Of a stretch of 64,000 nucleotides of DNA, positions 33,892 to 58,676 are shown in pieces. The stretch comes from Arenicellales bacterium (GTDB lineage Bacteria > Pseudomonadota > Gammaproteobacteria > Arenicellales > CBDCFT01). The notes under the pieces were generated by a model, which was not told the DNA's origin, made no database searches, and worked only from the letters and a program-made list of their open reading frames with translations. The translations under genes were made by a program, and so were the position numbers. Every line of letters starts with the position of its first letter. The stretch's first letter is position 1. The DNA lies in assembly GCA_965216735.1 (NCBI GenBank), contig OZ244198.1, positions 39,649-103,648 on the forward strand, given 5' to 3'.

Positions 33892-33892
33892 A

Positions 33893-36868: not shown

Positions 36869-37037
36869 GGGACTAAGCTTCACACTTCCAAATCAAGCTG
36901 TAGTATCAGGCGGATTGCCGACCGTATTTTCTCGCAGAAGCGACGAGCACACCGGAGTCGGCTACGTCCGCTTCTTTGTCTTGAAGAGCGGTGGTCGGCA
37001 GGCACAGCTGCCCCCACCTAGGCTAGTCTTGCAGGGA

Positions 37038-37997: not shown

Positions 37998-38221
37998 TGC
38001 TAAGCGCCTCCATTTCGTTTCCACGAGATTGTCTGTTTTGTCCACGCCCCTAGGACCGAACCTCGGCGGCATCGCCGCCACGCATCAAATCCCATCGACG
38101 TTTATGACTTAGTTTCCCATACTAAATACATGGAAAAAAATATGCATTTCCTTAAGCGTACTTGAAGAAATCTAAAAGTATTGCCCATGGATTCGAGAGA
38201 TCTTTTCTCGGGGGTGTGGAG

Positions 38222-39324: not shown

Positions 39325-40593
39325 ATGCCGCTGGATAATGATCGCGAGATATTCGAAGTCGCAGAACACACCGAACACGTGACGTTTCAGGCAACGAAAC
39401 GCAAGACGGCGAACGATTTCGACCTACCTATGGTTGAACACGATCGCCTTGCGTTTACGCCGGAAGAGTTTATTCGCCGATACGACACCATTCAGGCGGC
39501 TATGGCCACGAATGAACTTGATGCTCTACTGCTCCGGAGTCCCGAAAATATCACGTACCTCAGCGGTTATGAGACACCCGGTTACTACAAATACCATTGC
39601 ATTGTAGTGCCGAAGGACGGTGAGCCGGTGCTCTTAGTTCGGGATTTCGAGTGGATCAACTCCCCTGAGTTCGCCTGGAATACACGTATCGCGAAGGTCT
39701 ACGACTACGACCATCCTCCGAGCGTGACTGTCAACGTTCTGCAGCAACTTGGTTTGACAGCTGGCAAACGGATCGGTGTCGAGAAGCACAACTTCTTCTA
39801 CACGGTAGACGAGCATGAAACGCTCGTCGCTGAACTTCCGGACAATACTTACGTCGACGGCACGCAAATCCTGTGGGATGCGCGCATGATCAAGTCTGAC
39901 GAGGAGATCGCCGTCATGCGAAAGTCAGCGCATCTCGTGGACCTCGCTATGCAGGCTGGCTATGACGCGACTCGACCGGGCGCGAGCGGCGACGAGATCA
40001 ACGCGATCGTCAATAAGACCCTTTTCGAGAACGGTGGCGAGTACATGGGGTTGCCCCCCTTCGTCCTTGCTGGTGACCGGTCGTGCCTACCGCACCAGAC
40101 AGGTGGCGTGAACAGGCTCGGGGACGATGACGTGATGTACTTCGAGATATCTGCGGCTAAGCATCGTTACACAGCGGCCTTGATGCGAACAATCTTCGTG
40201 GGCAAACCCAAAGACGAATGGATACGCGCCGCCGAAGCATGCATCGAGTCCGTGGGAGCGGCGTTAGAGTTCATTAAGCCTGGCGCTACCTGTCATGATG
40301 CGGACGTTCATGCGCGCGCCGTGATGGAGAAAGCAGGGTTCGGTAAGTATTTTCGGAACCGTTTGGGGTATTCAATCGGAATCAGCTATCCGCCCGACTG
40401 GGGAGAAGGTGAGGTGATTTCGCTCCGTCGGGGGGAGTATCGAGTACTCCAACCTGGTATGACGTTCCATATGCCTCCGATGGCCCTCAAGTACCGCGAG
40501 TACGGTATCGGCTTTTCGGAATCTATCGTCGTGACGGAATCTGGATGCGAGAGACTCTCAAAGTTACCGCGAGAGGTTGTAATTAGGAACTAG
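39325..40593 (+). CDS. M24-family (creatinase/prolidase-fold) hydrolase, copy 1
   Basis: Creatinase_N-like N-domain (FTPEEFIRRYDTIQAAM..NITYLSGYETPGYY) plus a pita-bread C-domain. Start at ATG 39325 after aaaggaggg. Confidence 0.8.
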   Translation: MPLDNDREIFEVAEHTEHVTFQATKRKTANDFDLPMVEHDRLAFTPEEFIRRYDTIQAAMATNELDALLLRSPENITYLSGYETPGYYKYHCIVVPKDGEPVLLVRDFEWINSPEFAWNTRIAKVYDYDHPPSVTVNVLQQLGLTAGKRIGVEKHNFFYTVDEHETLVAELPDNTYVDGTQILWDARMIKSDEEIAVMRKSAHLVDLAMQAGYDATRPGASGDEINAIVNKTLFENGGEYMGLPPFVLAGDRSCLPHQTGGVNRLGDDDVMYFEISAAKHRYTAALMRTIFVGKPKDEWIRAAEACIESVGAALEFIKPGATCHDADVHARAVMEKAGFGKYFRNRLGYSIGISYPPDWGEGEVISLRRGEYRVLQPGMTFHMPPMALKYREYGIGFSESIVVTESGCERLSKLPREVVIRN

Positions 40594-40604
40594 GCTCCAT
40601 CAGG

Positions 40605-41855
40605 ATGCCGCACGCATCTTCTCAGTCCATAAGGGTGGGTCGACTGGTTGCCGATCTCGATACCTTGGCCCGATTCGGATTACGGGAAGACGGTGGCGGC
40701 ATAGACCGCCCAGCGTTCTCTCAGGCCTATCGCCAAGCCGCCGACTGGCTTATTGAAACGATGCGAGAAGCCGGAATGTCGGCGCGGATGGACTCGGCCG
40801 GAAACATTATCGGCCGCCTCGGACCAACAGACGGCCCCGCGGTTGTGTGTGGATCACACATCGATAGCGTACCAACGGCAGGGAAATATGACGGAACCCT
40901 GGGCGTACTGGCCGGCCTCGAGGTTGCCCGTTGCCTGAGCGAAAACAACATCGATCTAGACAAGGCGTACGAGGTCATCGCGTTTATGGACGAGGAAGGA
41001 GCGTTCCTCGGCGAGTTCGGTGCGCGGGCTATGATCGGCGATTTCAATGACGACGAGTTTGAGGATTGTCTCTCCCGTGATGGAACATCCCTCCTCGATG
41101 CGATCAAAGAGTTTGGTCTGGATTCTTCGAAGATTTGTGATGCAGTGCGGTCCGAGGCGGACTTCGACGCTTACGTTGAGCTTCATATCGAGCAAGGCCC
41201 TGTACTCGAAAACGAGGGCGTTGACATTGGAATTGTCGAGAGTATCGTCGGGTTGCAGATCAACGAGCTGAACTTTGAAGGCCAAGCCAATCACGCTGGC
41301 ACGACACCGCTACCCTATCGGCGGGATGCGTTTCGCGCCGCCGCGGAGACCGTAACCACCGCATTCAAAACCCTGGAGGGAGACTTCCCCCCCGATCTTC
41401 GGTTGACCTACGGCGTTGCCGACGTATCACCCGGTGCTCAAAACGTCGTACCGTCCCATGTCCGATTGATACAGGAAATCCGCGCCGGCCAGGAGTACGG
41501 GATCGATGCGGCTTGCAGGATGACGATGCAAGTCGCGGAGAGAATATGTAAGAAGTACGGCGTCAAGGTCGGGTCCCGTCTGATTTCGCGAGACCCCACG
41601 GCAAGAATGTCGGACCGGGTATCCGGTCTAGTCGAGGCCGTCTGTCTGTCGTTGGAACTGAAAGCCAAGCGAATGCCGTCGGGAGCAGGACACGATGCCC
41701 AGATTCTCGCACAGGTGTGCGATGCCGGCATGATCTTTGTGCCAAGCGCGGGCGGTATTAGTCACAATCCTGCCGAGCATACGTCGGTTGCAAATCTGGG
41801 GGCGGGTGCCGCTGTTCTATACGAAACGCTTCTCGGTCTTCTCGAGGCAGCCTGA
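40605..41855 (+). CDS. M20-family amidohydrolase (allantoate amidohydrolase / N-carbamoyl-L-amino-acid hydrolase type)
   Basis: MDSAGNIIGRL...VVCGSHIDSVPTAGKYDGTLGVLAGLEV, YVELHIEQGPVLE and ANHAGTTP motifs of the AllC/AmaB group. Confidence 0.85.
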   Translation: MPHASSQSIRVGRLVADLDTLARFGLREDGGGIDRPAFSQAYRQAADWLIETMREAGMSARMDSAGNIIGRLGPTDGPAVVCGSHIDSVPTAGKYDGTLGVLAGLEVARCLSENNIDLDKAYEVIAFMDEEGAFLGEFGARAMIGDFNDDEFEDCLSRDGTSLLDAIKEFGLDSSKICDAVRSEADFDAYVELHIEQGPVLENEGVDIGIVESIVGLQINELNFEGQANHAGTTPLPYRRDAFRAAAETVTTAFKTLEGDFPPDLRLTYGVADVSPGAQNVVPSHVRLIQEIRAGQEYGIDAACRMTMQVAERICKKYGVKVGSRLISRDPTARMSDRVSGLVEAVCLSLELKAKRMPSGAGHDAQILAQVCDAGMIFVPSAGGISHNPAEHTSVANLGAGAAVLYETLLGLLEAA

Positions 41856-42117
41856 CCGAAAAATCAATTCGCGGGCAAACTTTGGTTCGTGAGAATGGGA
41901 TGGAATGTTGCTTCAGCCAACAATTCGTATGATTAGCCTCTCTAGATGTTATTCACTTTTACATGCGCCAAAGTTAACATCTTTACATCGAGTCTGTTTC
42001 TTGAACTCGCCGTGCTTTAGAGTTGAAGCGCATCGGAAAGGCGCTGGTGTGACCGGGTCGTTCTAACAATGAGTCGATAGTGCTCCTCTGGGGACCAGAT
42101 AAATATTGAGACGGGAT

Positions 42118-43131
42118 ATGAATAAGGCAAAAGCCATTCTTGAGTGCAAAAGCGTCTGGAAAGTATTCGGGCCAAATGCGGAGTCATTCATGGCTGATCC
42201 CGGTCCCGAAGCCGGTACAGAGATGTTTGCGCAAAAGAACATGATTGTTGGTGTCCGCGACGTGAATTTGAACGTCGTTCAGGGCGAAATCTTCATCATC
42301 ATGGGGCTTTCCGGTTCCGGAAAATCAACCCTCGTCCGCTGCATGACGGGCTTACACGACCTCACACATGGCAAGGTCATGATCGAAGGCGTTGATGTCG
42401 CCAATCTTTCGGAAAAGGATCTTGTCCAATTGCGCCGTGAAAAGATCAACATGGTGTTTCAGGATTTCGCGTTGCTGCCTCATCTGACTGTTCTGCAGAA
42501 CATCGCTTTTCCCCTGAGGGTACAGGGAATGAAGCGACGGGACCGTGAGGCGGTCGCACGCGAGATGATCGAACTCGTCGGCCTGAGCGGTCGGGAGTCG
42601 TATTACCCGGACGAGTTGTCCGGCGGCCAACAACAAAGGGTCGGTATCGCACGCAGTCTGACAACGAAGCCGGAAGTCTGGTTCCTCGATGAGCCGTTTT
42701 CTGCGCTCGACCCACTAATTCGCCAGGACATGCAATCCGAGTTTCTGCGGCTCCAGAACATGCTGCATAAGACGATTGTCTTCATCACCCACGACTTCGA
42801 TGAGGCTGTTCGTCTGGCTGACCGTATTGCAGTGATGAAGGACGGAAGAGTCGTGCAAATGGGGACGCCAGAAGAGTTCATCCTCGAACCGGCCGACGAC
42901 TACATTGGGGAATTCACCAAGGATATTCCAAAGAACAAGGTTTTGCGCGTCCGTTCCATCATGGACAGCGCCGCCGAACCCACGAACGATGTAGAACTGA
43001 AAGCCGATTCACGAATATCAGAAGTCATCGCGCAAGTAGTTGAAAGTGACGGCCGTCACCCGGTCGTTGCGCCGGATGGCAGCGTCATCGGCTCCCTTCA
43101 CCGGCGCGACCTCGCACCCTACTTGGTGTGA
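42118..43131 (+). CDS. ProV-like ABC transporter ATPase with C-terminal CBS region
   Basis: Walker A GLSGSGKST, signature LSGGQQQRV, Walker B WFLDEPFSALD, and a CBS-like tail. Confidence 0.9.
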   Translation: MNKAKAILECKSVWKVFGPNAESFMADPGPEAGTEMFAQKNMIVGVRDVNLNVVQGEIFIIMGLSGSGKSTLVRCMTGLHDLTHGKVMIEGVDVANLSEKDLVQLRREKINMVFQDFALLPHLTVLQNIAFPLRVQGMKRRDREAVAREMIELVGLSGRESYYPDELSGGQQQRVGIARSLTTKPEVWFLDEPFSALDPLIRQDMQSEFLRLQNMLHKTIVFITHDFDEAVRLADRIAVMKDGRVVQMGTPEEFILEPADDYIGEFTKDIPKNKVLRVRSIMDSAAEPTNDVELKADSRISEVIAQVVESDGRHPVVAPDGSVIGSLHRRDLAPYLV

Positions 43132-45146
43132 ACGGGGACGTGTCGATGAGCGTAGCGGTCATGAATGCACTGCCGCGAATCCGAGTTCAATACGTTGTAT
43201 TTGTCGGCACCACCGTTGTCGCTACCTTGATCTGGTTGCTGTTGGATCGAGACAGCCCGTGGGTGGTCTACCCGCGGGGTTGGATCTTGGATCTACAGTC
43301 GCCGCTCGGCGATGGGATGAAGTTTCTCGCAAGAGAGTACGAGATTGGTCCCATCAAGTTCTCTGAAATCACGCGCGGCTTTGGATGGCTGATCTCTCAG
43401 CCGTTCGAGTTCTTGGGTGGAATCCTTGCTAAAGGGTTCACGTTCTACAAACTGGATGCACCCCCCGACGTCATTCCGCCGCTTCCGTGGATCGGCATTG
43501 CTGCAGTTTTCACACTGATCGCTTGGAACTTTGGTACCGCCGGCCTTGGAATCTGGACAGCCTCGACGTTCATCCTATTCGCTGTATTCGACCTGTGGGA
43601 GTCGGCAATGTTGACCATGGCGTCTGTCCTCATCGCCGTCGTCATGGGCGTTGTCGGCGGCACCATGCTCGGAATCTGGGGGTATCGGAACAAATTCGTC
43701 GATGCGGTCTTGCAGCCCTTCTACGACGTCATGCAGACGCTGCCGCTGTTCTCGTACTTGGTACCGATGATCTTGTTCTTCGGATTTGGCCCAATCGCCG
43801 CGTTGATGGCGACCGTCATTTTCGCAATGCCGCCGATGGCACGTGTAACGACCCAAGCGATGTACTCGGTGCCGGCCACAGTGGGCGAGTTCGGCAGAAT
43901 CGCAGGGTGCAGCCGCTTCCAATTGACGTGGCTCGTCATGGTGCCGGCGGCTCGAAAAGAGCTCCTGCTTGGTGTCAATCAAGTCATCATGTTGTCGCTC
44001 GCAGTCGTGATTGTCGCTTCCATTATTGGCGCCGGCGGCCTCGGCGGAGACGTTCTGAAGGCGCTGCGCTCCATGCGCATCGGCGACGCGTTAGCCGCCG
44101 GTTTGGCCATTACGTTCATGGCGATCATGTTGGACCGCGTATCCTACTTGATTGCGATGCGCCGCCCGGTCCACGAAACCGAAGATCCGGCTTGGTACAT
44201 CCGGCACAAGTTGCTCATTGCTTCGTTCTTCATCCTGGTCGGGACGACAGTGTTGTCGTTGGCAATTCCGGCGATACACACGTGGCCCGAAGAATGGACG
44301 ATCTCGGCAGGTCGTTACGGCAATGGCTTAGTGACCTGGATTTCGACAACATTCGACAGTCAAATCGGCGCACTGCGCGACGGCGCACTCCGCCACGTCT
44401 TGAAACCTACAAAGATCTTCTTCCTGGCAGTGCCGTGGTCGAGCTTCGTTCTCGTCGTCGGGGTGGTTGGTTGGCTGCTTGGCGGGTGGCGCACGGCGCT
44501 TCTGGGGTGCTCGGTTTTCGTCGCCATTGCGGCGCTTGGTTATTGGAAGAAAGCCATGATCTCGCTCTATCTGGTGTTTCTCTCGGTCATCGCGGCCATG
44601 GCGATCGGATTCTTGCTTGGGCTTTGGGCCGGATTGAATCGGCATGCCCACAGGGTGCTCATTCTGATCGTCGATCTGTTGCAAACTCTACCGACGTTCG
44701 TTTACCTGATTCCCGTCGTGATGATCTTCAGCATCGGAGATTTTCCGGCCCTCATCGCCATTACTCTGTACGCGATTGCGCCGGCCATCCGGTACACGGA
44801 TGCGGGTATCCGACATGTCCGGGAATCTTTGGTCGAGGGCGCGAGGATGTCGGGGTGCGACAGGCGCCAGATCCTCTGGCTTGTCAAGGTGCCGCTCGCC
44901 TTGCCCACGATCCTGCTCGGTCTCAATCAAGTAGTGATGATGGCGTTCGGCATGCTGGTCATTACTGCGCTAGTCGGGTCCCGCGGCCTTGAGGAGTTGA
45001 CTCTTCGAGCGATCGCGCGAGTCGAGCCAGGTGACGGTCTGTTGGCCGGCCTAGGCATTGCAGGCATGGCCATCGTGTTCGACCGCTACATCAAGGCAGG
45101 GAATCGCAAGCTTGCGGATTATCTCGGCATTCCCGTGCCGAGGTGA
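43128..45146 (+). CDS. Fused double ProW-like ABC permease
   Basis: Two homologous halves, each with an EAA-type loop (QTLPLFSYLVPMILFFGFG...AMPPMARVT and QTLPTFVYLIPVVMIFSIG...AIAPAIRYT). GTGA overlap with the ATPase gene. Confidence 0.85.
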   Translation: MNGDVSMSVAVMNALPRIRVQYVVFVGTTVVATLIWLLLDRDSPWVVYPRGWILDLQSPLGDGMKFLAREYEIGPIKFSEITRGFGWLISQPFEFLGGILAKGFTFYKLDAPPDVIPPLPWIGIAAVFTLIAWNFGTAGLGIWTASTFILFAVFDLWESAMLTMASVLIAVVMGVVGGTMLGIWGYRNKFVDAVLQPFYDVMQTLPLFSYLVPMILFFGFGPIAALMATVIFAMPPMARVTTQAMYSVPATVGEFGRIAGCSRFQLTWLVMVPAARKELLLGVNQVIMLSLAVVIVASIIGAGGLGGDVLKALRSMRIGDALAAGLAITFMAIMLDRVSYLIAMRRPVHETEDPAWYIRHKLLIASFFILVGTTVLSLAIPAIHTWPEEWTISAGRYGNGLVTWISTTFDSQIGALRDGALRHVLKPTKIFFLAVPWSSFVLVVGVVGWLLGGWRTALLGCSVFVAIAALGYWKKAMISLYLVFLSVIAAMAIGFLLGLWAGLNRHAHRVLILIVDLLQTLPTFVYLIPVVMIFSIGDFPALIAITLYAIAPAIRYTDAGIRHVRESLVEGARMSGCDRRQILWLVKVPLALPTILLGLNQVVMMAFGMLVITALVGSRGLEELTLRAIARVEPGDGLLAGLGIAGMAIVFDRYIKAGNRKLADYLGIPVPR

Positions 45147-45176
45147 TAACCTGAGAAGATCGAATAAGAGAACCAA

Positions 45177-46340
45177 ATGCCAAATCCACAGCATGGGGAC
45201 ATCGTGTTTCCGCAAGAAGAGTTCGATCGGCGCGTCGCCAATTTGCGAAGCCTGATGGAAGAGCGGCGGCTGGATGTCGTTGTCCTCGCCATGCCGCACG
45301 ATCTCTTCTATCTCACCGGTTATCAGACGCCAGGCTACTATTGGTTCCAGGTGTTGGTCGTGCCGCTCGAGCACGAGTCGTTCATGGTCACGCGCTTGCT
45401 AGAGTCATCGAACATTCCGGCTCGCACCTGGATCAAGATTAGCAGGCCGTACAGCGATTTCGAGGATCCGACACAGATACTCGCGGACGCATTTCGGGAA
45501 TTCGGTCTCGATAACGCCCGGATCGGCTACGACCGGGACGCCTATTTTTTCCGCGCCTTCGAGCAGGAAGGCTTTATCGCCAAGCTGCCGAACGCAACAT
45601 TCGAAAACTGCACAGGCATAGTCGAGCAGCTTCGGATCGTAAAATCCGACCTGGAGCTCGAAAAGATGGAGCGCGCCGCACGCGCCACAGAAGCCGGCAT
45701 GATGGCCGGCATCAAGGCTTCCGCCCCCAGCGTCAACGAAAATGAGATCGCCGCTGAGATTTATCATGCCATGCTCCGCGCCGGATCCGAATGGCCGGCC
45801 ATGGCGCCTTTCGTCGCGACAGGATGGCGCGGTGCCGTGGGTCACATGACTTGGGAGCACCGAACGCTCGAAGAGCAGGACTACGTCTTCCTCGAAGTGG
45901 CCGGCTGCTACAACAGATACCACGCGCCGATGATGCGGACGGTCACCATCGGCGAAACGCCACAGGCCATCAGGGATGGCGAAAAAGTCTGCCTGGACGC
46001 CATGCAGGCGACCATGGAGGCGATCAAGCCTGGCGTGCTGGCATCCGACATCGACATCATCGCCCGCGACATCATCAAGAAAGGCGCGCCACATGTGGAA
46101 CAAGCGGCGCGGACTGCCTATTCCATCGGCATTGGATTTCCACCTGACTGGGGTGAGGGGCATATCCTGAGCATGGTTAAGGGACATGATCGCCCGCTTG
46201 AGAAGAACATGACTTTTCACTTGATTCCGTGGGTCCAAGTACCGGGGCATGGCGGCGTCGGTATCACCGAATCCATTGTAATTACGAAGGACGGTTGCCG
46301 CTCCCTATTCAATTTCGAACAAAAAGTTTTCACCGCATGA
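45177..46340 (+). CDS. M24-family hydrolase, copy 2 (ectoine hydrolase DoeA/EutD-like by context)
   Basis: Creatinase_N plus pita-bread domains. Directly followed by EutB- and EutC-like genes. Confidence 0.75.
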   Translation: MPNPQHGDIVFPQEEFDRRVANLRSLMEERRLDVVVLAMPHDLFYLTGYQTPGYYWFQVLVVPLEHESFMVTRLLESSNIPARTWIKISRPYSDFEDPTQILADAFREFGLDNARIGYDRDAYFFRAFEQEGFIAKLPNATFENCTGIVEQLRIVKSDLELEKMERAARATEAGMMAGIKASAPSVNENEIAAEIYHAMLRAGSEWPAMAPFVATGWRGAVGHMTWEHRTLEEQDYVFLEVAGCYNRYHAPMMRTVTIGETPQAIRDGEKVCLDAMQATMEAIKPGVLASDIDIIARDIIKKGAPHVEQAARTAYSIGIGFPPDWGEGHILSMVKGHDRPLEKNMTFHLIPWVQVPGHGGVGITESIVITKDGCRSLFNFEQKVFTA

Positions 46341-47341
46341 CCCACATGCCGGCCCTATCGGATATCTACTCTGCGCGACAGCGGATCGCCGGTTCAGTGA
46401 TGCGCACCCCGCTTGTCGAATCCGCCCTGTCGGAGGACATCGGGCATGGAATCCATCTAAAGCTGGAAACACTGCAGCCCATCGGCGCATTCAAGTTGCG
46501 CGGCGCAACGAATGCCATCCACAAACTGACTGACGAGGAAAGACTCCGTGGGGTCGTCTGTTGCTCCACCGGAAATCATGGCCGGGCGGTCGCATACGCC
46601 GCGAGAGCAGTCGGTGTCAAGGCAATCGTTTGCGTTTCGAGCTTGGTCCCCGGGATCAAGGTAAAGGCCATCAAAGCGCTTGGCGCAGAAACTCGTCGGA
46701 TCGGCAACAGCCAAGACGACGCGGAGGTCGAGGTCGAACGGTTGGTCAACGACGAGGGCATGATCAACATGCCACCCTTCGATGATCCGGACGTCATCTC
46801 GGGTCAAGGCACGATCGGTTTGGAAATCCTGGAGGATTACCCAGAGGTCGAAACGATCATGGTGCCGGTCTCCGGCGGCGGGTTGATCTCGGGAATCGCC
46901 GTCGCCGCGAAGACCATAAAGCCATCGGTCCGGATCGTCGGCATCTGCATGAAACACGGCTCAGCCATGGGCTCGAGCTTCGAAGCGGGAGAGCCGGTCG
47001 CCGTCGAAGAGGTTCCGTCACTGGCGGACTCCTTGGGTGGCGGACTTGGCTTTGAGAACCACTACACGTTCGAACTCTGTCGGAAAAACGTCGACGAGCT
47101 TGTTCGGATTGATGAGCCGGAGGTCTACGACGGCATGCGATCCCTGTTCTATCGCGATCGGCTCGTTGCGGAAGGCTCGTCCGCTGTATCACACGGCGCG
47201 ATTGTCGCCGGCCTCGTCAAGATTACCGGACCGACGGCCATTGTTGTCTCCGGGCGGAATGTGGACATGGATCAGTTCTCGGCGGTCGTTGCGGGCGAGC
47301 CCGTGCAACTGGGAGGCCGGCAAGTTGGAGGAATCTGTTGA
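46337..47341 (+). CDS. PLP-dependent threonine/serine dehydratase-family protein (EutB-like)
   Basis: LETLQPIGAFKLRGA (PLP lysine) and CSTGNHGRAVAYAA motifs. ATGA overlap with the upstream gene. Confidence 0.85.
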   Translation: MTHMPALSDIYSARQRIAGSVMRTPLVESALSEDIGHGIHLKLETLQPIGAFKLRGATNAIHKLTDEERLRGVVCCSTGNHGRAVAYAARAVGVKAIVCVSSLVPGIKVKAIKALGAETRRIGNSQDDAEVEVERLVNDEGMINMPPFDDPDVISGQGTIGLEILEDYPEVETIMVPVSGGGLISGIAVAAKTIKPSVRIVGICMKHGSAMGSSFEAGEPVAVEEVPSLADSLGGGLGFENHYTFELCRKNVDELVRIDEPEVYDGMRSLFYRDRLVAEGSSAVSHGAIVAGLVKITGPTAIVVSGRNVDMDQFSAVVAGEPVQLGGRQVGGIC

Positions 47342-47342
47342 T

Positions 47343-48335: not shown

Positions 48336-48347
48336 GTGAAAGGTCAC

Positions 48348-49370: not shown

Positions 49371-49379
49371 GGACGGGGT

Positions 49380-51023
49380 ATGTCTCACGTAAAAAAGTTC
49401 GACTACATCGTTGTTGGGGCGGGGTCCGCAGGGTGCGCGATTGCCTCGCGGCTGAGCGAAAACCCTAGTATTCGGGTCCTTCTGCTGGAAGCCGGCGGTA
49501 CCGACATCAATCCTTTTGTCGCCTCGCCGCTTGGTGAGACGGCGATGCTGGAGCGCGCGCAGGACTGGAACTTCCCATCCGAGCCCGAACCGATGCTCAA
49601 CAACGCAAAGATGAAGTTGGCCCGCGGCAAGTGCCTCGGCGGAAGCTCGTCGATCAACGGGCAAATCGCTTTTCGCGGTCATCCGGAGGACTACGACGAA
49701 TGGGAGCACCTGGGCAATCCCGGCTGGAGCTACCAAGACGTCCTTCCCTTCTTCAAACGGATGGAGACCTATGAGGGAGGTGAAAGCGCGCACCGCGGTG
49801 GCAGTGGCCCTCTATCCGTAATCAATTCAACATTCTCTCATCCGCTGTGGGACGCGTTTATCGAATGTGGAAGAGAACTTGGTCACAAAGAGATCAAGGA
49901 CTTTAACAGCGGCGATATGGATGGGTTCGGATATTGCCAGCATACTCATTACAAATACCCATTGCTCCGTTGCTCGTCGTCCTATGCCTATCTCCTGAAA
50001 GCTCGATTTCGCGGGAATTTGACAATCAGCAAACACGCATTTGTCCAACGGCTAATCATTGAACAGGGCCAGGCCAAAGGTGTTAGCTATCGAAAAGACG
50101 GACGCATGATCGAGGCCCATGCTCGCTGCGAGGTTATCGTCAGCGCCGGCGCGTATATGAGCTCAAAGCTCTTGCTGATATCCGGTATTGGGCCAAAGGA
50201 CGAAATCGAAGCTGTCGGCGTGGAGTGTATCAACCACCTGCCTGGGGTGGGAAAGAGCCTCACGGACCAGATCGGTTCGTTTGTACAACACCACTCAAGG
50301 CAGCCTATCTCGTACTTCAAGTACACTAGACTGTACAACCAGATCGTTGCAGGGCTGCAGTGGCTGACCTTGGGACGCGGTCCGTTCACCGTCTTTCCGA
50401 TGAACTGCTCTGCGTTCCTTCGCTCGGAAGAGGGACTACGCCAGCCGGATGTGCAATTCTATATGTTCCCCGTCGCGGTAAATGCCTACAAGGACGACAC
50501 GTATGATACCCGGTTCCACGGGTTCAACATTCACTGGGGGCAGATTCATCCGGAGTCCGCCGGCGAGATTACGCTGCGGTCGGACGACCCCGACGAGTAC
50601 CCTCGCATCATCACTAATTTTTTCACGCACGAGAAAGATCGTCAGGTGAACCGCTGGGCGTTTCGCATGGCAAGGAAGATGATGGAAACCAAAGCGCTCA
50701 AGATTTTCAGCGCGGGTGAGGAAACACCTGGAACGCCTTGCGAATCTGACGAGGAGATCGATGAACTCACGAGCCGCTACTTCGCCAATCATTATCACGC
50801 GTCTGGCAGCAACAAGATGGGACCGTCAAGCGACGAGCGGGCAGTCGTTAGTGATGAATTGAAAGTCCATGGAATAGAACGGCTTCGGGTCGCGGATGTT
50901 TCTATCATGCCAAGGCCAGTGAGTGGCGGCTTCAACATCCCATCGATCATGATCGGTGAGAAGGCGTCCGACATGATCCTGACCGATCATGAACGTCTTC
51001 GAGATCAGCAACCGGGAGAATGA
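49380..51023 (+). CDS. GMC-family FAD oxidoreductase (choline dehydrogenase-like)
   Basis: FDYIVVGAGSAGCAIASRLSE, GKCLGGSSSINGQ and a C-terminal HASGSNKMG active-site region. Confidence 0.9.
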   Translation: MSHVKKFDYIVVGAGSAGCAIASRLSENPSIRVLLLEAGGTDINPFVASPLGETAMLERAQDWNFPSEPEPMLNNAKMKLARGKCLGGSSSINGQIAFRGHPEDYDEWEHLGNPGWSYQDVLPFFKRMETYEGGESAHRGGSGPLSVINSTFSHPLWDAFIECGRELGHKEIKDFNSGDMDGFGYCQHTHYKYPLLRCSSSYAYLLKARFRGNLTISKHAFVQRLIIEQGQAKGVSYRKDGRMIEAHARCEVIVSAGAYMSSKLLLISGIGPKDEIEAVGVECINHLPGVGKSLTDQIGSFVQHHSRQPISYFKYTRLYNQIVAGLQWLTLGRGPFTVFPMNCSAFLRSEEGLRQPDVQFYMFPVAVNAYKDDTYDTRFHGFNIHWGQIHPESAGEITLRSDDPDEYPRIITNFFTHEKDRQVNRWAFRMARKMMETKALKIFSAGEETPGTPCESDEEIDELTSRYFANHYHASGSNKMGPSSDERAVVSDELKVHGIERLRVADVSIMPRPVSGGFNIPSIMIGEKASDMILTDHERLRDQQPGE

Positions 51024-51319
51024 GCGTGAGCAACGTGAAGGGACAGTCGCGGTACTTCCCGATCGAAGAGTATGAAACGCGTTGGCAGAAGACCTGGGCT
51101 GAGATTCGCAATCGCGGCTACGAGACAGCCCTGATTTGCGGTAAGACCGGTTTCGTCTACGAGCGTGCCATGGACCTGATCTACCTGTCGAACTATCACT
51201 CTACTCAGGAACAGGAACCCGACACAGTCATGTGGCAAGCGCGGTCTTTCTCGGCCGTGGTGTTTCACGGCAACCCTGAGCCTGCAGTTCACATGGTCAG
51301 GGATAGGAGACGACTTTGA
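51020..51319 (+). CDS. Stand-alone Creatinase_N-like 99-aa ORF (gene fragment or small subunit)
   Basis: YFPIEEYETRWQKTWAEIRNRGYETALICG...DLIYLSNYHS parallels the N-domains of both M24 genes. It has 4-nt overlaps with both neighbours. Confidence 0.4.
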   Translation: MSVSNVKGQSRYFPIEEYETRWQKTWAEIRNRGYETALICGKTGFVYERAMDLIYLSNYHSTQEQEPDTVMWQARSFSAVVFHGNPEPAVHMVRDRRRL

Positions 51320-52188
51320 GTGACATAACGGTCCTTGGAATGGGTGCCATGGGGACGGCGATGGTCAGTGCGTTCATTGAGGGTGGCCTGTCTGTAACGG
51401 CCTGGAACCGGACATCGGACAAATTGGCCGCCGTGGAGGCGCTTGGCGCGCAGTGCATCGCTCAATGCGCCGACGCCATACGGCAGAGCTCGGTCACGAT
51501 CGTCTGTGTATCCGACTACGAAGCTCTTCACGATATTTTCAGCCGGCCCGGTGTCACACCGCTGCTAGACGGCCGAGTTATCGTCAACTTCAGCACCGGA
51601 ACACCGAATGAGGCGCGATCGGCGGAAGATACGATCCATAGCCTGGGAGGTTACTATCTCGATGGTGCTATCCTCGTCTATCCGGCGAATCTCGGAGCGC
51701 CGGACGCAAAAATTCTGGTATCCGGGAGCGCGCGCGTGTTCGCGAGTGTCGAATCCCAACTTCGCCATATGGGTGGCGATCTTCGCTATCTCGGGCAGAA
51801 CGTCGCAGCAGCAGCAGCGCTTGACCTGGCATTCTTGTCACGCTTGATGGCGATCGTGTTCGGCACCGCGCATGGCGCTAGTATCTGCGAATCGGAGGGT
51901 GTCTCTGTCGGTGATTTTGCTGATTTGTTGCCCAACGGCGATCGAGGCCAGATCATTGCGCGGGCGATTCACGACGACAATTTTTCTGTCGGCCCGTCCG
52001 GCGCCGCTTCAGAGGTCTCACAAGGTGCGCTTGCGCGACTCTGCGAGCAGGCGGCATGCGCCGGCATCAACAGCGAGATTCCACGCGTATTGCGCAATCT
52101 GGTTGATCGCGCCGTCGCGCTTGGCCATGGCAAGGAAGAAACAGCGTCGGTGATCAAGATTCTTCGGGCGCTTGAGCCAAGATCGTGA
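51316..52188 (+). CDS. NAD(P)-dependent beta-hydroxyacid dehydrogenase / imine-reductase-like oxidoreductase
   Basis: ITVLGMGAMGTAMVSAFIEGGLSVTAWNRT Rossmann N-terminus. TTG start after ggataggaga. Confidence 0.75.
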   Translation: MSDITVLGMGAMGTAMVSAFIEGGLSVTAWNRTSDKLAAVEALGAQCIAQCADAIRQSSVTIVCVSDYEALHDIFSRPGVTPLLDGRVIVNFSTGTPNEARSAEDTIHSLGGYYLDGAILVYPANLGAPDAKILVSGSARVFASVESQLRHMGGDLRYLGQNVAAAAALDLAFLSRLMAIVFGTAHGASICESEGVSVGDFADLLPNGDRGQIIARAIHDDNFSVGPSGAASEVSQGALARLCEQAACAGINSEIPRVLRNLVDRAVALGHGKEETASVIKILRALEPRS

Positions 52189-52667
52189 GAAAATTGGACG
52201 ATTATGACATCGCCATTCTTCGTACCCTGCAGCGTGACGGTCGGATCACCAAGGCGGCGCTGGCGAAAGCGGTCAACCTGTCGTCAAGCCCCTGCTGGGA
52301 GCGGCTTCGTCGACTCGAGGAGGCTAGCTACATCACTGGTTACCGCGCTGAAGTAGATATACGTAGAATTAGCCCGGTGATCGAGGTCATCGTTGAAGTG
52401 ACGCTGGCAAACCATCAAACAGCAGATTTCCAGCGTTTTGAAACGGCGGTCGAAAAAGTGCCGCAAATCGGGTACTGTGCTGCAACCGGTGGCGGTATCG
52501 ATTATGTCATGAAACTGATCGTCCGGGACGTCGATGCCTACCAACGGCTTATGGACAAGCTTCTCGACGAGGATATTGGTATCGACCGCTATTTCGGTTA
52601 TGTCGTAACCAAGCAGATCAAATCGACCCCGCCATTATTGAATGATTCCGATGATATAAACGGTTGA
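52185..52667 (+). CDS. Lrp/AsnC-family transcriptional regulator
   Basis: LDDYDIAILRTLQRDGRITKAALAKAVNLSSSPCWERLRRLEE HTH plus a RAM domain. Confidence 0.9.
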   Translation: MRKLDDYDIAILRTLQRDGRITKAALAKAVNLSSSPCWERLRRLEEASYITGYRAEVDIRRISPVIEVIVEVTLANHQTADFQRFETAVEKVPQIGYCAATGGGIDYVMKLIVRDVDAYQRLMDKLLDEDIGIDRYFGYVVTKQIKSTPPLLNDSDDING

Positions 52668-52839
52668 GACGGTGTCGCCGGTAGGTCCAGAAGAATACTC
52701 TGTCCGCCATATGACAAGTAATGATTTTTTCTTCTTTAGGCGGCCACAACAAAACAACATTCTTCAATCTTTCCACTAAGATTATCGTATTTAATGCACG
52801 CCGCTCGGAGGCATGCTTCAATGCATTGAGAGATTGAAA

Positions 52840-54330
52840 ATGAATACCAAGGGACACCGACGAACTTGTACAAACCTGCTTCGGCTACTCGACGATCAGA
52901 AGCTGATCCGCGAGTTCAGCTACATCGGTGGCAGCTGGGTCGCCGCTGCGAATGGCGCGACGGTTGAGGTCGAGGACCCCGCGAATGGCGCTTTATTGGG
53001 CAATGTGGCTGCGTTGTCTGCCGCCGAGAGCGCGGCCGCCGTCGACACCGCCCATGACGCATTCCCGGCTTGGGCGGGTTTGCTACCTCAAGAACGCTCC
53101 AAAATTATCCGTCGTTGGTTTGAGCTCGTCGTTGCGCACAAAGAGGACCTGGCGCGGATCATGACGCTGGAACAGGGCAAACCGATTTCGGAGGCCCGCG
53201 GAGAAATTGATTATGCGGCTACTTTTCTCGAATACTACGCGGAGGAAGCTAAGCGGCCGAATATCGAGAGCGTGACCTCGCATTTGCCCGACGCAGAGGT
53301 CGAGGTTTGGCTTGAACCCGTTGGTGTTGCCGCTCTGATCACACCATGGAACTTTCCTTCCGCAATGATCACGCGAAAAGCGGCGGCTGCACTCGCGGCG
53401 GGTTGTACAGTCGTGGTACATCCGTCACACGAAACCCCGTTTTCCGGTTTAGCACTGGCCGAACTAGCCGAGCGTGCCGGTTTTCCGACAGGCGTGTTCA
53501 ACGTAATTGGGGGGCGCGCCTCGGTGGTGGTGCCACCGTGGACTGAGGATCCCCGTGTACGTGTGCTTTCGTTCACAGGTTCCACTGTGGTTGGCAAAGT
53601 GCTCTACGGGAAGTGCGCCGAAACCGTAAAACGCATTGTCATGGAACTCGGTGGTCTAGCCCCATTTATATTATTTGCTGACGGCGATCTGGAACTCGCA
53701 GTCAACGAAGCCATTAAAGCGAAGTTCGCAACTTCAGGACAAGATTGCCTGGGGGCCAACCGCTTTTTTGTAGAGCGGCCGGTTTACGATGAATTTTGCT
53801 GCCAGTTTGCCGACCGCGCAGCGGCATTGACTGTGGGGCCAGGTATCGAAGACCCTGATATCGGTCCGTTGATGAACGAAAAAGCGGTTGCAAAACAGGA
53901 AGAACATATCGCCGATGCGCTTTCGAAAGGTGCCAAACTGGCGTGCGGAGGTCAGCGCCACCACGCTGGACCACTGTTTTTCCAACCTACAGTGTTGACG
54001 GATGTGCCGCTGAATGCGTTGATCATGCACGAGGAGACCTTCGGCCCAGTCGCGGCGATAGCGGCGTTTGACACCGAAGAGGAGGCATTAGACCGAGCGA
54101 ATGATACAGAATACGGTTTGATCGCCTATCTTCACACGCAGGACCCACGCCGGATATACCGTGCGAGCCGCTCGTTGCAATATGGCATGGTTGCGGTCAA
54201 CCGGACAAAAGTCACCGGCGCCCCGATTCCGTTTGGTGGCGTCAAACAATCCGGGTTGGGCCGGGAAGGTGCGCGGTTCGGTATGGAGGCATTCATGGAT
54301 GTGAAATACGTCTGCCGTGACTGGGCCTGA
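52840..54330 (+). CDS. NAD(P)-dependent aldehyde dehydrogenase (succinate-semialdehyde dehydrogenase-like)
   Basis: ITPWNFPSAMITRK, VMELGG and EETFGPV motifs. The catalytic Cys region is GQDCLGANR. The track start is 52813. Confidence 0.85.
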   Translation: MNTKGHRRTCTNLLRLLDDQKLIREFSYIGGSWVAAANGATVEVEDPANGALLGNVAALSAAESAAAVDTAHDAFPAWAGLLPQERSKIIRRWFELVVAHKEDLARIMTLEQGKPISEARGEIDYAATFLEYYAEEAKRPNIESVTSHLPDAEVEVWLEPVGVAALITPWNFPSAMITRKAAAALAAGCTVVVHPSHETPFSGLALAELAERAGFPTGVFNVIGGRASVVVPPWTEDPRVRVLSFTGSTVVGKVLYGKCAETVKRIVMELGGLAPFILFADGDLELAVNEAIKAKFATSGQDCLGANRFFVERPVYDEFCCQFADRAAALTVGPGIEDPDIGPLMNEKAVAKQEEHIADALSKGAKLACGGQRHHAGPLFFQPTVLTDVPLNALIMHEETFGPVAAIAAFDTEEEALDRANDTEYGLIAYLHTQDPRRIYRASRSLQYGMVAVNRTKVTGAPIPFGGVKQSGLGREGARFGMEAFMDVKYVCRDWA

Positions 54331-54352
54331 TAACTATTTACTGGAAAAAACT

Positions 54353-55729
54353 ATGTTAAACAATGATCAACTAAACCGATGGGACCGAGAGACGTTTTTC
54401 CATCCATCCACCCATGTGGCTATGCATGCACGTGGCGAGAGTCCTCAACGTATCGTGGTGGGTGGCGAAGGTGTGTACGTTACAGACAACAACGGACGCA
54501 AGAGCTTGGACGGTTTCGCCGGTTTGTACTGTGTCAACGTCGGTTACGGTCGTAAGGAAATAGCGCAAGCCATCGCCGACCAAGCACAGCAACTCTCGTA
54601 TTACCACGCGTACGCCGGACATGCGAGCGAGGCGGCCATCACGTTGGCCCACATGATTATCGAGCGCGCACCGACGCACATGAGCCATGTCTATTTCGGC
54701 TTATCCGGCTCGGACGCCAACGAAACCAATATCAAATTGGTTTGGTACATTAACAATGTACTCGGCCGACCGGGAAAAAAGAAGATTATTTCGCGTTGGC
54801 GTGGCTATCACGGCTCTGGTGTGATGACCGGGTCACTGACTGGTCTTGAGCTATTTCATAGTGCGTTCGATTTACCGCGTGTCCCTATACTACATACGCA
54901 AGCCCCCTACTATTTTCGCCGCGACGACTTGGATCAGACTGAAGAACAGTTCACCACCGATTGTGCGAAGAAACTGGAAGAACTTATCCTCGCTGAAGGC
55001 CCGGATACCGTAGCAGCGTTTATTGGTGAACCCATTCTGGGTACCGGTGGACTGGTGCCCCCTCCGCAGGGCTATTGGTCGAAGATTCAAGTTGTCTTAA
55101 AGAAGTACGATATCTTGCTCATTGCGGACGAAGTTGTCACCGGTTTCGGCCGCCTCGGATCCATGTTCGGTAGCGAGCATTACGGTATCAGACCGGACAT
55201 CATCACAATTGCAAAAGGGCTAACCTCAGCTTATGCACCCCTATCGGGGTCGATTGTCTCAGAAGAGCTTTGGAAAATTTTGGAACAAGGCTCCGATGAT
55301 CTAGGTGTGTTCGGACACGGCTGGACTTATTCTGCACACCCACTTTGTGCGGCCGCTGGGATTGCGAACCTGAAACTAATCGATCGTCTAGATCTTGTTA
55401 CCAATGCTCGCGATACGGGTGCGTACTTTCAGAAATCACTACATGAAGCATTTGATAATCACCCGATTATTGGCGATGTCCGTGGCGAGGGCCTAATGGC
55501 AGCGCTCGAGTTCGTCGCCGACAAAGACGATCGTGTGTTTTTTGACAGCTCGAAACAAGTTGGGCCGAGGATAGCAGCGGCGGCGCTCGAACATGGCCTC
55601 ATCGCCCGCGCGATGCCGCAGGGAGACATTTTGGGCTTTGCACCACCATTATGTATTTCCAAATACGAAGTGGATGAACTTGTTGACATGACCTTGGCTG
55701 CGGTCACAACGGTTGCCGAAGAACTCTAG
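54353..55729 (+). CDS. Class III (omega) aminotransferase
   Basis: LLIADEVVTGFGRLG and IITIAKGLTSAYAPL (PLP lysine) motifs. Confidence 0.9.
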   Translation: MLNNDQLNRWDRETFFHPSTHVAMHARGESPQRIVVGGEGVYVTDNNGRKSLDGFAGLYCVNVGYGRKEIAQAIADQAQQLSYYHAYAGHASEAAITLAHMIIERAPTHMSHVYFGLSGSDANETNIKLVWYINNVLGRPGKKKIISRWRGYHGSGVMTGSLTGLELFHSAFDLPRVPILHTQAPYYFRRDDLDQTEEQFTTDCAKKLEELILAEGPDTVAAFIGEPILGTGGLVPPPQGYWSKIQVVLKKYDILLIADEVVTGFGRLGSMFGSEHYGIRPDIITIAKGLTSAYAPLSGSIVSEELWKILEQGSDDLGVFGHGWTYSAHPLCAAAGIANLKLIDRLDLVTNARDTGAYFQKSLHEAFDNHPIIGDVRGEGLMAALEFVADKDDRVFFDSSKQVGPRIAAAALEHGLIARAMPQGDILGFAPPLCISKYEVDELVDMTLAAVTTVAEEL

Positions 55730-58208: not shown

Positions 58209-58286
58209 TGATAGTAAAACTTCAATATTTATGGAGAACCTTCTTGTGAATGCACAACGGCTAGTCAATGAGAAGATAAGAGCTCA

Positions 58287-58676
58287 GTGACACGCCAACC
58301 ACACGGTAATGAAAGTAGCAACGCGGTAGCTGTTACTACCGTATTGCCACGGCTATTGCGTTTTCGGGATGCCCCGCTGTACTTGGGTATGGACCGAAAC
58401 CGATTTAACCAAGAAGTCAGGCCCTATGTGACCGAGATACCGATTGGCACACAGGGTGTTGCCTTCGACCGACTTGATTTGGACGCCTGGGTGGATCAGT
58501 ATAAACACTGCAACGGGCGTCCCGGTCAACTCATAGGAGAAAGACCATGGGACGTAAAAGAACGCCGGGCCTATACAAACGTAAAGGCACCTGGCATATC
58601 GACAAAAATATCTACGGGCGGCGAGTTTGCCAAAGCACTGGCACTGATCGACTTGAAGAAGCGGAACGTTTCTTAG
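58287..58676 (+). CDS. AlpA/excisionase-like small DNA-binding protein
   Basis: LLRFRDAPLYLGMDRNRFNQEVRPYV...GVAFDRLDLDAWVD resembles AlpA/Xis-type wHTH proteins found upstream of island integrases. The ORF overlaps int by 130 nt, so the 3' end is uncertain. Confidence 0.55.
   Translation: MTRQPHGNESSNAVAVTTVLPRLLRFRDAPLYLGMDRNRFNQEVRPYVTEIPIGTQGVAFDRLDLDAWVDQYKHCNGRPGQLIGERPWDVKERRAYTNVKAPGISTKISTGGEFAKALALIDLKKRNVS

Follow-up and report, generated by a model that had tools for sequence, protein, structure and literature searches.

What does a bacterial gene cluster break down when its dehydratase, lower pathway and gene order are those of ectoine catabolism, and its deacetylase, importer and regulators are not? 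The question is raised by a 64-kb stretch of DNA from an Arenicellales bacterium (contig OZ244198.1, positions 39,649 to 103,648; here called the window), in which a GC-rich block contains a catabolic cluster related to the Eut and Doe systems that degrade ectoine and hydroxyectoine. An earlier note on this DNA, made from the sequence alone, had proposed a variant ectoine-like catabolic module with non-canonical parts, and this is supported by the dehydratase EutB, by the lower pathway and by the gene neighborhoods of relatives. We propose that the cluster type is a previously undescribed proteobacterial variant of the ectoine-type catabolic clusters, and we lean, with some reserve, towards ectoine or hydroxyectoine as the substrate of its core. 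The observations are of gene content, homology, synteny and phylogenetic placement, and from these we infer every enzymatic step.

Gene content of the island

The GC content is 0.55–0.59 across approximately 34–55.7 kb of the window and 0.45–0.50 on both sides, and GC at third codon positions (GC3) is 0.54–0.73 in the island genes. The GC-rich block contains seventeen open reading frames (ORFs), three on the minus strand and fourteen on the plus strand, and a Pfam scan (threshold 1e-3) finds a domain in every one except a 99-residue ORF (orf99). They are as follows, with core and accessory genes distinguished as discussed below.

34790..36883 (-): histamine-dehydrogenase-like FMN/4Fe-4S amine dehydrogenase; accessory; Pfam Oxidored_FMN and NAD-binding domains
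37038..38081 (-): OpuAC-family periplasmic substrate-binding protein, TmoX-like; core; Pfam OpuAC, 161 bits
38222..39139 (-): LysR-family regulator, oriented divergently to the catabolic genes; core; Pfam HTH_1 and LysR_substrate
39325..40593 (+): M24b, second DoeA-like hydrolase; accessory; Pfam Creatinase_N and M24
40605..41855 (+): M20 hydrolase of carbamoylase/allantoate-amidohydrolase type; core; NCBIfam models
42118..43131 (+): ProV-type ATP-binding cassette (ABC) ATPase; core; TIGR01186, 327.5 bits against a cut-off of 326.6
43128..45146 (+): fused double ProW-type permease, 672 aa; core; two BPD_transp_1 stretches
45177..46340 (+): M24a, proposed DoeA-like ring hydrolase; core; Creatinase_N and Peptidase_M24
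46337..47341 (+): EutB, pyridoxal phosphate (PLP)-dependent hydroxyectoine-utilization dehydratase; core; NF005680 and TIGR02991
47343..48335 (+): EutC-like enzyme of the ornithine-cyclodeaminase/mu-crystallin family; core; NF006141
48336..49370 (+): deacetylase of histone-deacetylase (HDAC) fold and acetylpolyamine-amidohydrolase (APAH) type; accessory; Pfam Hist_deacetyl, 223 bits
49380..51023 (+): GMC flavoprotein oxidoreductase, choline-dehydrogenase-like; accessory but in close linkage with M24a
51020..51319 (+): orf99, 99 aa; nothing from Pfam or NCBIfam
51316..52188 (+): NAD(P)H oxidoreductase of the imine-reductase family (IRED); accessory; Pfam NAD_binding_2 and RedAm-like_C
52185..52667 (+): AsnC/Lrp-type regulator in the DoeX/AsnC position; core; Pfam HTH_AsnC-type and AsnC_trans_reg
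52840..54330 (+): Ssd/DoeC-type aldehyde dehydrogenase; core; Aldedh, 509 bits
54353..55729 (+): Atf/DoeD-type class-III aminotransferase; core; NF005684, 821 bits against 687

Choline/ProW permease models match the fused ProW protein twice. The eight genes from 45177 to 52667 had been described as a chain with overlaps of 4 nt or gaps no longer than 12 nt, and the junctions read from the sequence bear this out: -4 (ATGA) at M24a/EutB, +1 at EutB/EutC, 0 at EutC/HDAC, +9 nt at HDAC/GMC, and -4 nt at each of GMC/orf99, orf99/IRED and IRED/AsnC. The chain is preceded by a 30-nt gap from ProW to M24a and followed by a 172-nt AT-rich spacer between AsnC and Ssd; Ssd and Atf are separated by 22 nt, or overlap by 14 nt if a GTG start is used.

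Relationship to the Eut/Doe family

EutB scores above both curated hydroxyectoine-dehydratase equivalogs (NF005680, 447 bits against a cut-off of 413; TIGR02991, 422 against 413). The EutC-like protein scores above NF006141 (PRK08291, 'cyclodeaminase'; 457 against 408) and below TIGR02992 (ectoine_eutC; 427 against 472), and is probably an imine reductase. Atf is above NF005684 (PRK07482), and Ssd is below the succinate-semialdehyde dehydrogenase (SSADH) model TIGR01780 (580 against 646). As a canonical reference we used a Hoeflea cluster, in which EutD (TIGR02993, 748 against 613) and EutE (TIGR02994, 584 against 403) both exceed their cut-offs; the window proteins are 74% (Ssd), 50% (AsnC), 52% (EutB) and 54% (EutC) identical to their counterparts there, and Atf is 67% identical to the aminotransferase beside a canonical EutD in Aliiroseovarius. 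All three lower-pathway parts (Atf/DoeD, Ssd/DoeC and AsnC/DoeX) are thus present, and since no curated model specific to ectoine came up in the scans for any of the three, their assignment rests on orthology and synteny.

The M24, EutB, EutC, AsnC, Ssd and Atf genes had been said to mirror the known ectoine clusters. This holds for EutB on its models and for Ssd, Atf and AsnC on identity; it does not hold for M24a on curated cut-offs (see below). The earlier note had also considered that the homologues might fall outside the ectoine-utilization clades, and the outcome of this check does not refute the proposal: EutB lies inside the curated clade and M24a is nested at 99% bootstrap with a DoeB-associated lineage, with EutC inside by PRK08291 and outside by TIGR02992.

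Several canonical parts are missing. Searches of the 64-kb window by tblastn (E≤1e-3) gave no match to three EutE/DoeB-type queries, to EnuR, or to UehABC/Usp of the TRAP class of transporters (tripartite ATP-independent periplasmic) and an Ehu-type substrate-binding protein from related loci. There was likewise no tblastn match in the window to EutA, using the Hoeflea protein in the EutA position and the EutA-like protein of a Granulosicoccaceae locus (L004) as queries, and Pfam found no AstE_AspA domain among the island proteins. The absence of EutA and canonical DoeB/EutE, and a transporter of ProU type (from its OpuAC/ProVW models) rather than Ehu/Ueh type, had both been noted from the sequence and stand. 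The regulators present are LysR and AsnC. By hydrolase, deacetylase, EutA, transporter and regulator, the cluster is outside the curated Eut/Doe family; the cluster type very probably works like that family.

Much has been written on the canonical ectoine clusters and how they are regulated (PMC8739950, PMC3187862), and the window shares with them EutB, an EutC-like enzyme, AsnC, Ssd and Atf in the same relative order (hydrolase ... asnC-ssd-atf), a first enzyme of DoeA fold with the invariant residues of the family, and aspartate as the likely end product. In contrast, the window hydrolase fails TIGR02993, and EutE/DoeB, EutA, EnuR and the TRAP (Ueh/Tea) and Ehu transporters are replaced by a carbamoylase-type M20 hydrolase, a LysR regulator and an OpuAC/ProVW (TmoX-like) importer. 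There are also extras, namely a second M24 protein, the APAH-type deacetylase, GMC, IRED and the histamine-dehydrogenase-like enzyme. The M20 hydrolase had been counted among these extras; GMC, IRED and the second M24 are indeed accessory, but M20 is a conserved part of the core.

The M24 hydrolases

The nearest solved structure to both M24 proteins in the PDB is the ectoine hydrolase DoeA (M24a to 6twk/6twj, 185 bits; M24b, 196 bits), and M24a is approximately 33% identical to EutD/DoeA. Both have the Creatinase_N plus Peptidase_M24 architecture, and orthologues carry database names such as 'Xaa-Pro dipeptidase' or 'M24 metallopeptidase', as would be expected if they were creatinases or Xaa-Pro peptidases and the island served to degrade creatine, other guanidino compounds or peptides. 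We consider this highly improbable: prolidases score only approximately 117–120 bits, creatinase 1chm scores 74 bits against M24b and is absent from the M24a PDB matches at 1e-10, and the PepQ and aminopeptidase models are far under their cut-offs. Both proteins carry DoeA-type invariant residues, there are no sarcosine-oxidase genes, and the neighbors are EutB, EutC, Ssd and Atf. On scores, we rejected creatinase, prolidase and DddP alike as identities for the M24 proteins.

For a residue check we aligned canonical EutD/DoeA proteins, an intermediate group (Bacillota/Desulfobulbaceae), DoeB-associated hydrolases, M24a orthologues and M24b orthologues, and used the 31 columns that are invariant across the first three groups; these columns are defined by conservation within the family. 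The M24a clade retains 26 of the 31 throughout, two are changed conservatively across the clade (N42D, E119D) and two vary within it. The one remaining column is variable only in M24b, which retains all of the others.

In a neighbor-joining tree (100 bootstraps) the M24a proteins form a clade with 100% support, and M24a together with the DoeB-associated proteins is supported at 99%, with M24a nested among them. The canonical and intermediate proteins group at 100%, and M24b is a separate deep branch, 100% supported and approximately 30–35% identical to everything else. The DoeB-associated sisters come from three loci (L022–L024, Geminicoccaceae and Anaerolineaceae among them) and are 52–56% identical to M24a, with similar scores on the DoeA_2 model NF038259 (416–456 bits; M24a 459). 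Their M24 genes all adjoin DoeB-like deacetylases that fall just under the TIGR02994 cut-off (346–390 bits against 403). EutB and EutC-like genes are neighbors in L022 (EutB 482 against 413; PRK08291 421 against 408) and L023, an SBP_bac_3 ABC transporter is near M24 in L022 and L024, a GntR regulator is present in all three, and L024 also has Aminotran_3 and Asd genes. The tree placement together with the DoeB-like neighbors argues that M24a arose inside a lineage whose genomic setting is that of ectoine-type clusters. Compared with these sisters, the M24a clade has lost its DoeB-like neighbor and gained M20 and GMC partners.

We note an unusual arrangement in L024 (Anaerolineaceae JAAYZQ010000266, 7333–12229), where a trimethylamine-methyltransferase family (MTTB) gene is followed by a tandem pair of DoeA-like M24 genes and a gene for a DoeB-like deacetylase, pairing a methylamine-type enzyme with ectoine-type hydrolases.

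A conserved eleven-gene core

Orthologues of M24a at 67–88% identity are present in eight loci, from an ENA metagenome contig (L001), Altererythrobacter (L002/L006), an alphaproteobacterial metagenome-assembled genome (MAG; L005), Microbulbifer marinus (L007), Halieaceae (L008), a Granulosicoccaceae chromosome (OZ244967.1; L004/L009) and Defluviimonas salinarum (L025). An exact-sequence look-up of M24a gave no match, and the GTDB representatives scanned do not include the genome of the window. The most complete comparison is with a fetched 21-kb locus of D. salinarum, in which eleven window genes have orthologues at 55–82% identity: the transporter genes (OpuAC, ProV, ProW), LysR, M20, EutB, EutC, M24a, AsnC, Ssd and Atf. 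One part of this locus reads ProW-ProV(73%)-M20(55%), followed by LysR(56%)-EutB(60%)-EutC(71%)-amidohydrolase, and the other reads OpuAC(62%)-M24a(82%)-AsnC(68%)-Ssd(76%)-Atf(70%)-aspartate ammonia-lyase. The order of the latter is the canonical eutD-(eutE)-asnC-ssd-atf with an aspartase appended (NF008909, 652 against 510), and because the cluster terminates in this enzyme we take aspartate to be the probable end product of the pathway.

Orthologues of the LysR regulator are found in L001 (84%), L002 (65%), L005 (62%) and L025 (56%), and fused ProW proteins of 665–675 aa in L001, L004 and L025, although importer types vary among the relatives (OpuAC/ProVW, SBP_bac_8 or MFS). A carbamoylase-type M20 gene is present in every M24a-orthologue locus. 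These neighborhoods show that M20 and the OpuAC-type transporter are conserved parts of the variant and not random additions.

There are further observations in individual loci. In L004/L009 (11343–21170) there are, besides M24a, two EutB genes at or above a curated EutB cut-off, an EutA-like gene below its cut-off, a cupin gene, a second aldehyde dehydrogenase gene, M24b and the amine dehydrogenase, a set that suggests two parallel hydrolase branches. A gene for acetyl-CoA synthetase is found in M. marinus (L007, 1554–3491), a few kb upstream from a GMC-Aldedh-M24a-EutB string; it may fit acetate release by deacetylation, or may be a coincidence. Where the window has EutB-EutC after M24a, L001 (11196–11585) and L008 (11247–11642) have an ORF of 129–131 aa with no Pfam match.

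The M20 hydrolase, the importer and the substrate

The M20 protein scores above the allantoate-amidohydrolase model NF006771 (415 against 399) and the carbamoylase model TIGR01879 (345 against 204) and below ErtE (375 against 520), and its best PDB match is the Geobacillus N-carbamoyl-L-amino-acid hydrolase 3n5f (263 bits). Its gene is immediately before Ssd-Atf in L004/L009 and L007, and immediately after M24a in L002. We propose that it replaces EutE/DoeB, the best evidence for which is this syntenic replacement of EutE. L-carbamoylases of the 3n5f type also cleave N-acetyl and N-formyl amino acids.

Outside the GC-rich block, at 61207–62422 (-), there is another M20 gene of carbamoylase type, probably a native paralogue that was frameshifted or interrupted. 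It is broken into two ORFs, one of 133 aa for the N-terminal part and one of 261 aa for the C-terminal part, which contains Peptidase_M20/M20_dimer, and it adjoins a 218-aa ORF at 62416–63072.

A number of findings weigh against ectoine or hydroxyectoine as the substrate. Both M24 proteins are under both curated ectoine-hydrolase cut-offs (TIGR02993, eutD: M24a 232 and M24b 225 against 613; NF038259, DoeA_2: 459 and 266 against 575), and canonical EutDs have the reverse pattern (650–783 on TIGR02993, 172–199 on DoeA_2). The NCBI names of the orthologues of both are only 'M24 metallopeptidase / Xaa-Pro peptidase'. The type of M20 enzyme in the island normally acts on ureido (N-carbamoyl) compounds, and the usual regulator, EnuR, is gone. 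The binding protein has its best PDB match in 4xz6 (178 bits), which is Ruegeria pomeroyi TmoX with trimethylamine N-oxide (TMAO) (PMC8918994), so that the nearest characterized relative of the importer binds TMAO and not ectoine. Finally, the known ectoine pathway offers no step for GMC, although its gene accompanies M24a at each orthologue locus examined apart from the fetched Defluviimonas one.

Much of this could be accommodated if the same architecture acted on another, ectoine-like substrate, such as a cyclic guanidine or ureide analogue or (hydroxy)diaminobutyrate in a linear N-carbamoyl or N-acyl form. By opening or de-amidinating this solute the DoeA-like M24 enzyme would give an N-carbamoyl intermediate, M20 would free the diamino acid, and EutB/EutC and Atf/Ssd would lead to aspartate. 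The M20 scores on both amidohydrolase models and its closeness to 3n5f, the sub-threshold M24 scores, the betaine/TMAO-type importer and the lack of EnuR in the window are all in keeping with this, as is the exchange of a DoeB-like partner for M20 exactly where the M24a clade diverges from its sisters. Nonetheless, we consider another substrate unlikely. EutB satisfies the hydroxyectoine-specific equivalog models, the lower-pathway genes are 67–76% identical to those of canonical ectoine clusters, and carbamoylase-type enzymes are generally able to accept N-acetyl amino acids. Natural solutes of these kinds are also not known to be common. A further idea, on which we are similarly doubtful, is that the core, instead of being a second ectoine pathway, is a route for an undescribed ectoine-like marine solute, for instance a cyclic guanidine or ureide or an N-carbamoyl-(hydroxy)diaminobutyrate, with GMC, IRED and the histamine-dehydrogenase-like enzyme as integral parts and the M24 proteins as new specificities in the ectoine-hydrolase fold.

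Accessory genes

All five accessory genes (HDAC, GMC, IRED, M24b and amine dehydrogenase) are missing from the 21-kb Defluviimonas locus, and their distribution elsewhere is uneven. The amine dehydrogenase and M24b both occur in the window, L001, L005 and L004/L009, with amine dehydrogenase identities of 88% (L001), 76% (L005) and 50% (L004/L009). The HDAC orthologue is in L001 only among the M24a loci (87%), and the IRED orthologue is in L005 only (59%), in the same position.

The amine dehydrogenase had been called TMADH-like, but it is much closer to histamine dehydrogenase (3k30 of Nocardioides simplex, 823 bits; 6de6, 803 bits) than to trimethylamine dehydrogenase (TMADH; 526 bits). It aligns end to end with 3k30 and keeps the flavin-linking Cys and the 4Fe-4S Cys motif, as well as the equivalents of Cys35, Gln65, Glu79, Trp267 and Asp358; we take Cys35 to be the flavinylation Cys and the other four to be histamine-site residues. 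In L004/L009 it is part of a single co-directional string, amine dehydrogenase-M24b-aldehyde dehydrogenase-EutA-like (206 against 318)-cupin-EutB (481 against 413)-EutC-like, and because of this string it seems to be functionally linked to Eut-like chemistry. A reasonable idea for its role is that, in place of transamination, it would remove the gamma-amino group of 2,4-diaminobutyrate (DABA), hydroxy-DABA or N-alpha-acetyl-DABA by oxidative deamination.

The PDB matches of the HDAC protein are APAH enzymes (9gkz, 339 bits; 6phr, 296; 3q9b, 259), and its catalytic motifs are intact (PPGHHA, DIDAHHGNG, GVDA and EGGY). GMC is below both BetA cut-offs (PRK02106, 563 against 605; TIGR01810, betA, 514 against 732) and its best PDB match is 9lq0 (366 bits); membership of the BetA/BetB family (choline to betaine) is ruled out on these scores, and a similar mode of action is possible. 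Nine proteins including that of the window make up its orthologue group at ≥75% identity, and six of the other eight lie on contigs that agree in length with those of M24a orthologues. The Defluviimonas locus weakens the idea that GMC is invariably linked to M24a. The best PDB matches of IRED are imine reductases (145–153 bits). GMC and IRED together could be suggested as an oxidation/reduction substitute for the absent EutA.

The small ORF between GMC and IRED had been described as a Creatinase_N mini-ORF, a label that the lack of a Pfam match at 1e-3 does not support. With orf99 as the query, tblastn aligned 35 aa at 49% identity in L001, directly after GMC, and matched M24a orthologues weakly at their N-termini; there was no match in L005. 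From the matches in these two places, orf99 is probably the 5' remnant of a third M24 gene.

We observed a further relative of the accessory set in a MAG contig (JAVKBW010000087, L026; 2042–11617), which has HDAC (39%), arginase, OpuAC (51%), ProV (63%), fused ProW (57%) and GMC (55%) genes, without an M24 gene, and then an IS110 transposase gene and an arginine-deiminase pathway. It may be that HDAC, GMC and the transporter make up a separate module.

These distributions bear on whether the island is one pathway or a mosaic, in which the eleven-gene core is of ectoine type and the amine dehydrogenase, M24b, HDAC, GMC and IRED genes are separate amine modules joined to it by recombination, acting perhaps on histamine, agmatine or acetylpolyamines or on a choline-like alcohol. 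Such an origin is compatible with ectoine as the substrate of the core. It would account for a Defluviimonas locus with the core and none of the accessory genes, for the confinement of HDAC to the window and L001, for M24a-HDAC-GMC without EutB/EutC in L001, and for HDAC, arginase, OpuAC-ProV-fused ProW and GMC traveling without an M24 gene in L026. The full-length match of the amine dehydrogenase to histamine dehydrogenase, with the histamine-site residues retained, fits it too, and the orf99 remnant at the GMC/IRED junction and a DDE transposase gene after IRED in L005 are signs of rearrangement. The single co-directional string in L004/L009 combines the amine dehydrogenase and M24b with aldehyde dehydrogenase, EutA-like, EutB and EutC genes, however, the small GMC orthologue group largely shares contigs with that of M24a, and 4-nt overlaps couple the translation of accessory and core genes in the window. 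With both sides in mind, we regard a mosaic as possible but short of probable.

Proposed pathway

For ectoine or hydroxyectoine, the route would begin with import of the solute by the TmoX-like OpuAC binding protein, the ProV ATPase and the fused double ProW permease. M24a, with M24b assisting or acting in parallel, would split the tetrahydropyrimidine (cyclic amidine) ring and yield an N-acyl-2,4-diaminobutyrate or its 3-hydroxy derivative. The carbamoylase-type M20 hydrolase would strip the N-acyl group in place of EutE/DoeB, and the APAH-type HDAC could additionally deacetylate a terminal-N (gamma) isomer; Halomonas DoeA is reported to yield the gamma-acetyl isomer (PMC7192451). In the hydroxy branch, EutB would dehydrate a beta-hydroxy-alpha-amino acid to a 2-imino acid and EutC would reduce it, by analogy with BhcB/BhcD. 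Atf would then transaminate diaminobutyrate to aspartate semialdehyde and Ssd would oxidize this to aspartate. The LysR and AsnC regulators would take over from EnuR, and the amine dehydrogenase, GMC and IRED could provide a transaminase-independent oxidation of the gamma-amine together with the oxidation/reduction substitute for EutA suggested above.

Island borders and integrity

Mobility genes lie on both sides of the GC-rich block, and the GC content increases immediately to the right of the left border zone. The features of the borders are as follows.

28001..34306 (.): left border zone, with IS5-type transposase, formamidase, IstB_IS21 and a MazE/PIN toxin-antitoxin pair (Pfam, ORFs)
28001–28939: IS5-type DDE transposase, left border
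29921–31378 (-): TAT-signal acetamidase/formamidase (FmdA_AmdA), between the IS5-type transposase and IstB_IS21 genes
32503–33189: IstB_IS21, left border
33649–34306 (+): MazE/AbrB-type antitoxin and PIN-domain toxin, a VapBC-like pair at the left island edge
57321..60961 (+): right border zone, with two tyrosine recombinases and an IS481-type transposase (Pfam Integrase_1/Phage_integrase; Phage_integrase; rve/LZ_Tnp_IS481)
57321–58208: phage-integrase-family gene 1, right border
58547–59629: phage-integrase-family gene 2, right border
59750–60961: IS481-type transposase, right border

The MazE/PIN pair may stabilize the acquired DNA. A fragment resembling a truncated LacI-type regulator (29254–29667) adjoins the FmdA_AmdA gene.

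The block thus has the atypical composition (GC 0.55–0.59 against approximately 0.48) and the flanking mobility genes of a genomic island, and its description in the earlier note as GC-rich and island-borne is confirmed by the GC step and by the transposase, toxin-antitoxin and integrase genes at its borders. The nearest relatives of the cargo are in GC-rich loci (57–62% GC), including those of Altererythrobacter, Defluviimonas and an alphaproteobacterial MAG. The 64-kb window contains no tRNA gene, and a repeat search gave no credible direct repeats at the borders. A search of a plasmid collection gave only two weak matches (72–74% identity, ~300 bp), both in rhizobial SSADH genes. Since the record for the GMC protein of the window places it on a contig of 5.18 Mb and the module is on no known plasmid, the island is chromosomal, and we conclude that the GC-rich block is a horizontally acquired chromosomal island.

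Promoter and terminator scans found sites that were fewer than, or no more than, in shuffled sequence and are uninformative. The sequence occurs only in low-depth metagenome runs, with no RNA run identified; in four such runs the locus is present at approximately 10x, and no island-free variant was seen in them. One low-depth contig (run X3) joins 41740 to 54034 and skips 12.3 kb, with 21 nt supporting one side; it is probably an assembly artefact between two M20/Aldedh-like regions, or comes from a related strain, and we do not consider it reliable.

Comparison with other systems

The best-scoring model for M24a is the DoeA_2 type (NF038259, 459 bits), yet it is under the cut-off of 575; this model is probably based on the doeBDAC system of Methylotuvimicrobium alcaliphilum (PMC7192451). 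Other departures from the canonical pattern have been reported. A survey by Boas Lichty et al. (2026), which searched with EutD and kept genomes in which EutE and EutB were also present, mentions, as tentative, clusters of Thermodesulfobacteriota that carry two eutD genes but lack eutE, and clusters of Bacillales in which there is an M20 amidohydrolase, abgB (PMC13188858). With these the window cluster shares two eutD-like genes, the lack of eutE, an M20 enzyme (abgB in Bacillales), EutB/EutC and an aminotransferase, but it differs in phylum, M24 lineage (theirs are in the TIGR02993-related 'INT' group of our tree), M20 subfamily, transporters and regulators, and GMC, APAH, IRED and amine dehydrogenase are not reported for them (PMC13188858). 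We found no paper that ties GMC, APAH-type, carbamoylase-type or histamine-dehydrogenase-type enzymes to ectoine catabolism.

Three other systems resemble single parts of the cluster. BhcB and BhcD (the latter an iminosuccinate reductase) of the beta-hydroxyaspartate cycle are likewise a PLP dehydratase and an imine reductase of the ornithine cyclodeaminase (OCD) family acting in tandem on a beta-hydroxy-alpha-amino acid, but EutB (200 bits) and EutC (179 bits) are far under the cut-offs of 550 and 500, so the analogy is mechanistic only. The histamine dehydrogenases of N. simplex (3k30) and Rhizobium sp. (6de6) match their window homologue over its full length (803–823 bits), but this homologue is in an island of diamino-acid-solute type. 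TmoXWV of R. pomeroyi and the OpuAC/ProU-type systems share an OpuAC-fold binding protein, a ProV-type ATPase and a long fused permease with the island, although the window binding protein scores only 178 bits to TmoX and its genomic context is not methylamine metabolism.

Implications

Few microbial stress solutes are as abundant as the ectoines, which are also a nitrogen-rich marine food source. Surveys of ectoine consumers search for EutD together with EutE (PMC13188858; PMC8739950), and the cluster type described here would escape them, because it is without EutE, EutA and EnuR and its hydrolase is under the curated thresholds. If the cluster is functional, ectoine consumers would be under-counted. 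The precise reactions of EutABC are stated to be still unknown (PMC8739950), and the cluster would be a natural experiment in both the deacetylation of N-acetyl-DABA without DoeB/EutE and the role of EutB/EutC without EutA. Two cultured carriers, Defluviimonas salinarum and Microbulbifer marinus CGMCC 1.10657, make it directly testable. Most likely, the island lets its marine host use ectoine-like stress solutes, with replacement parts for two of the classical steps.

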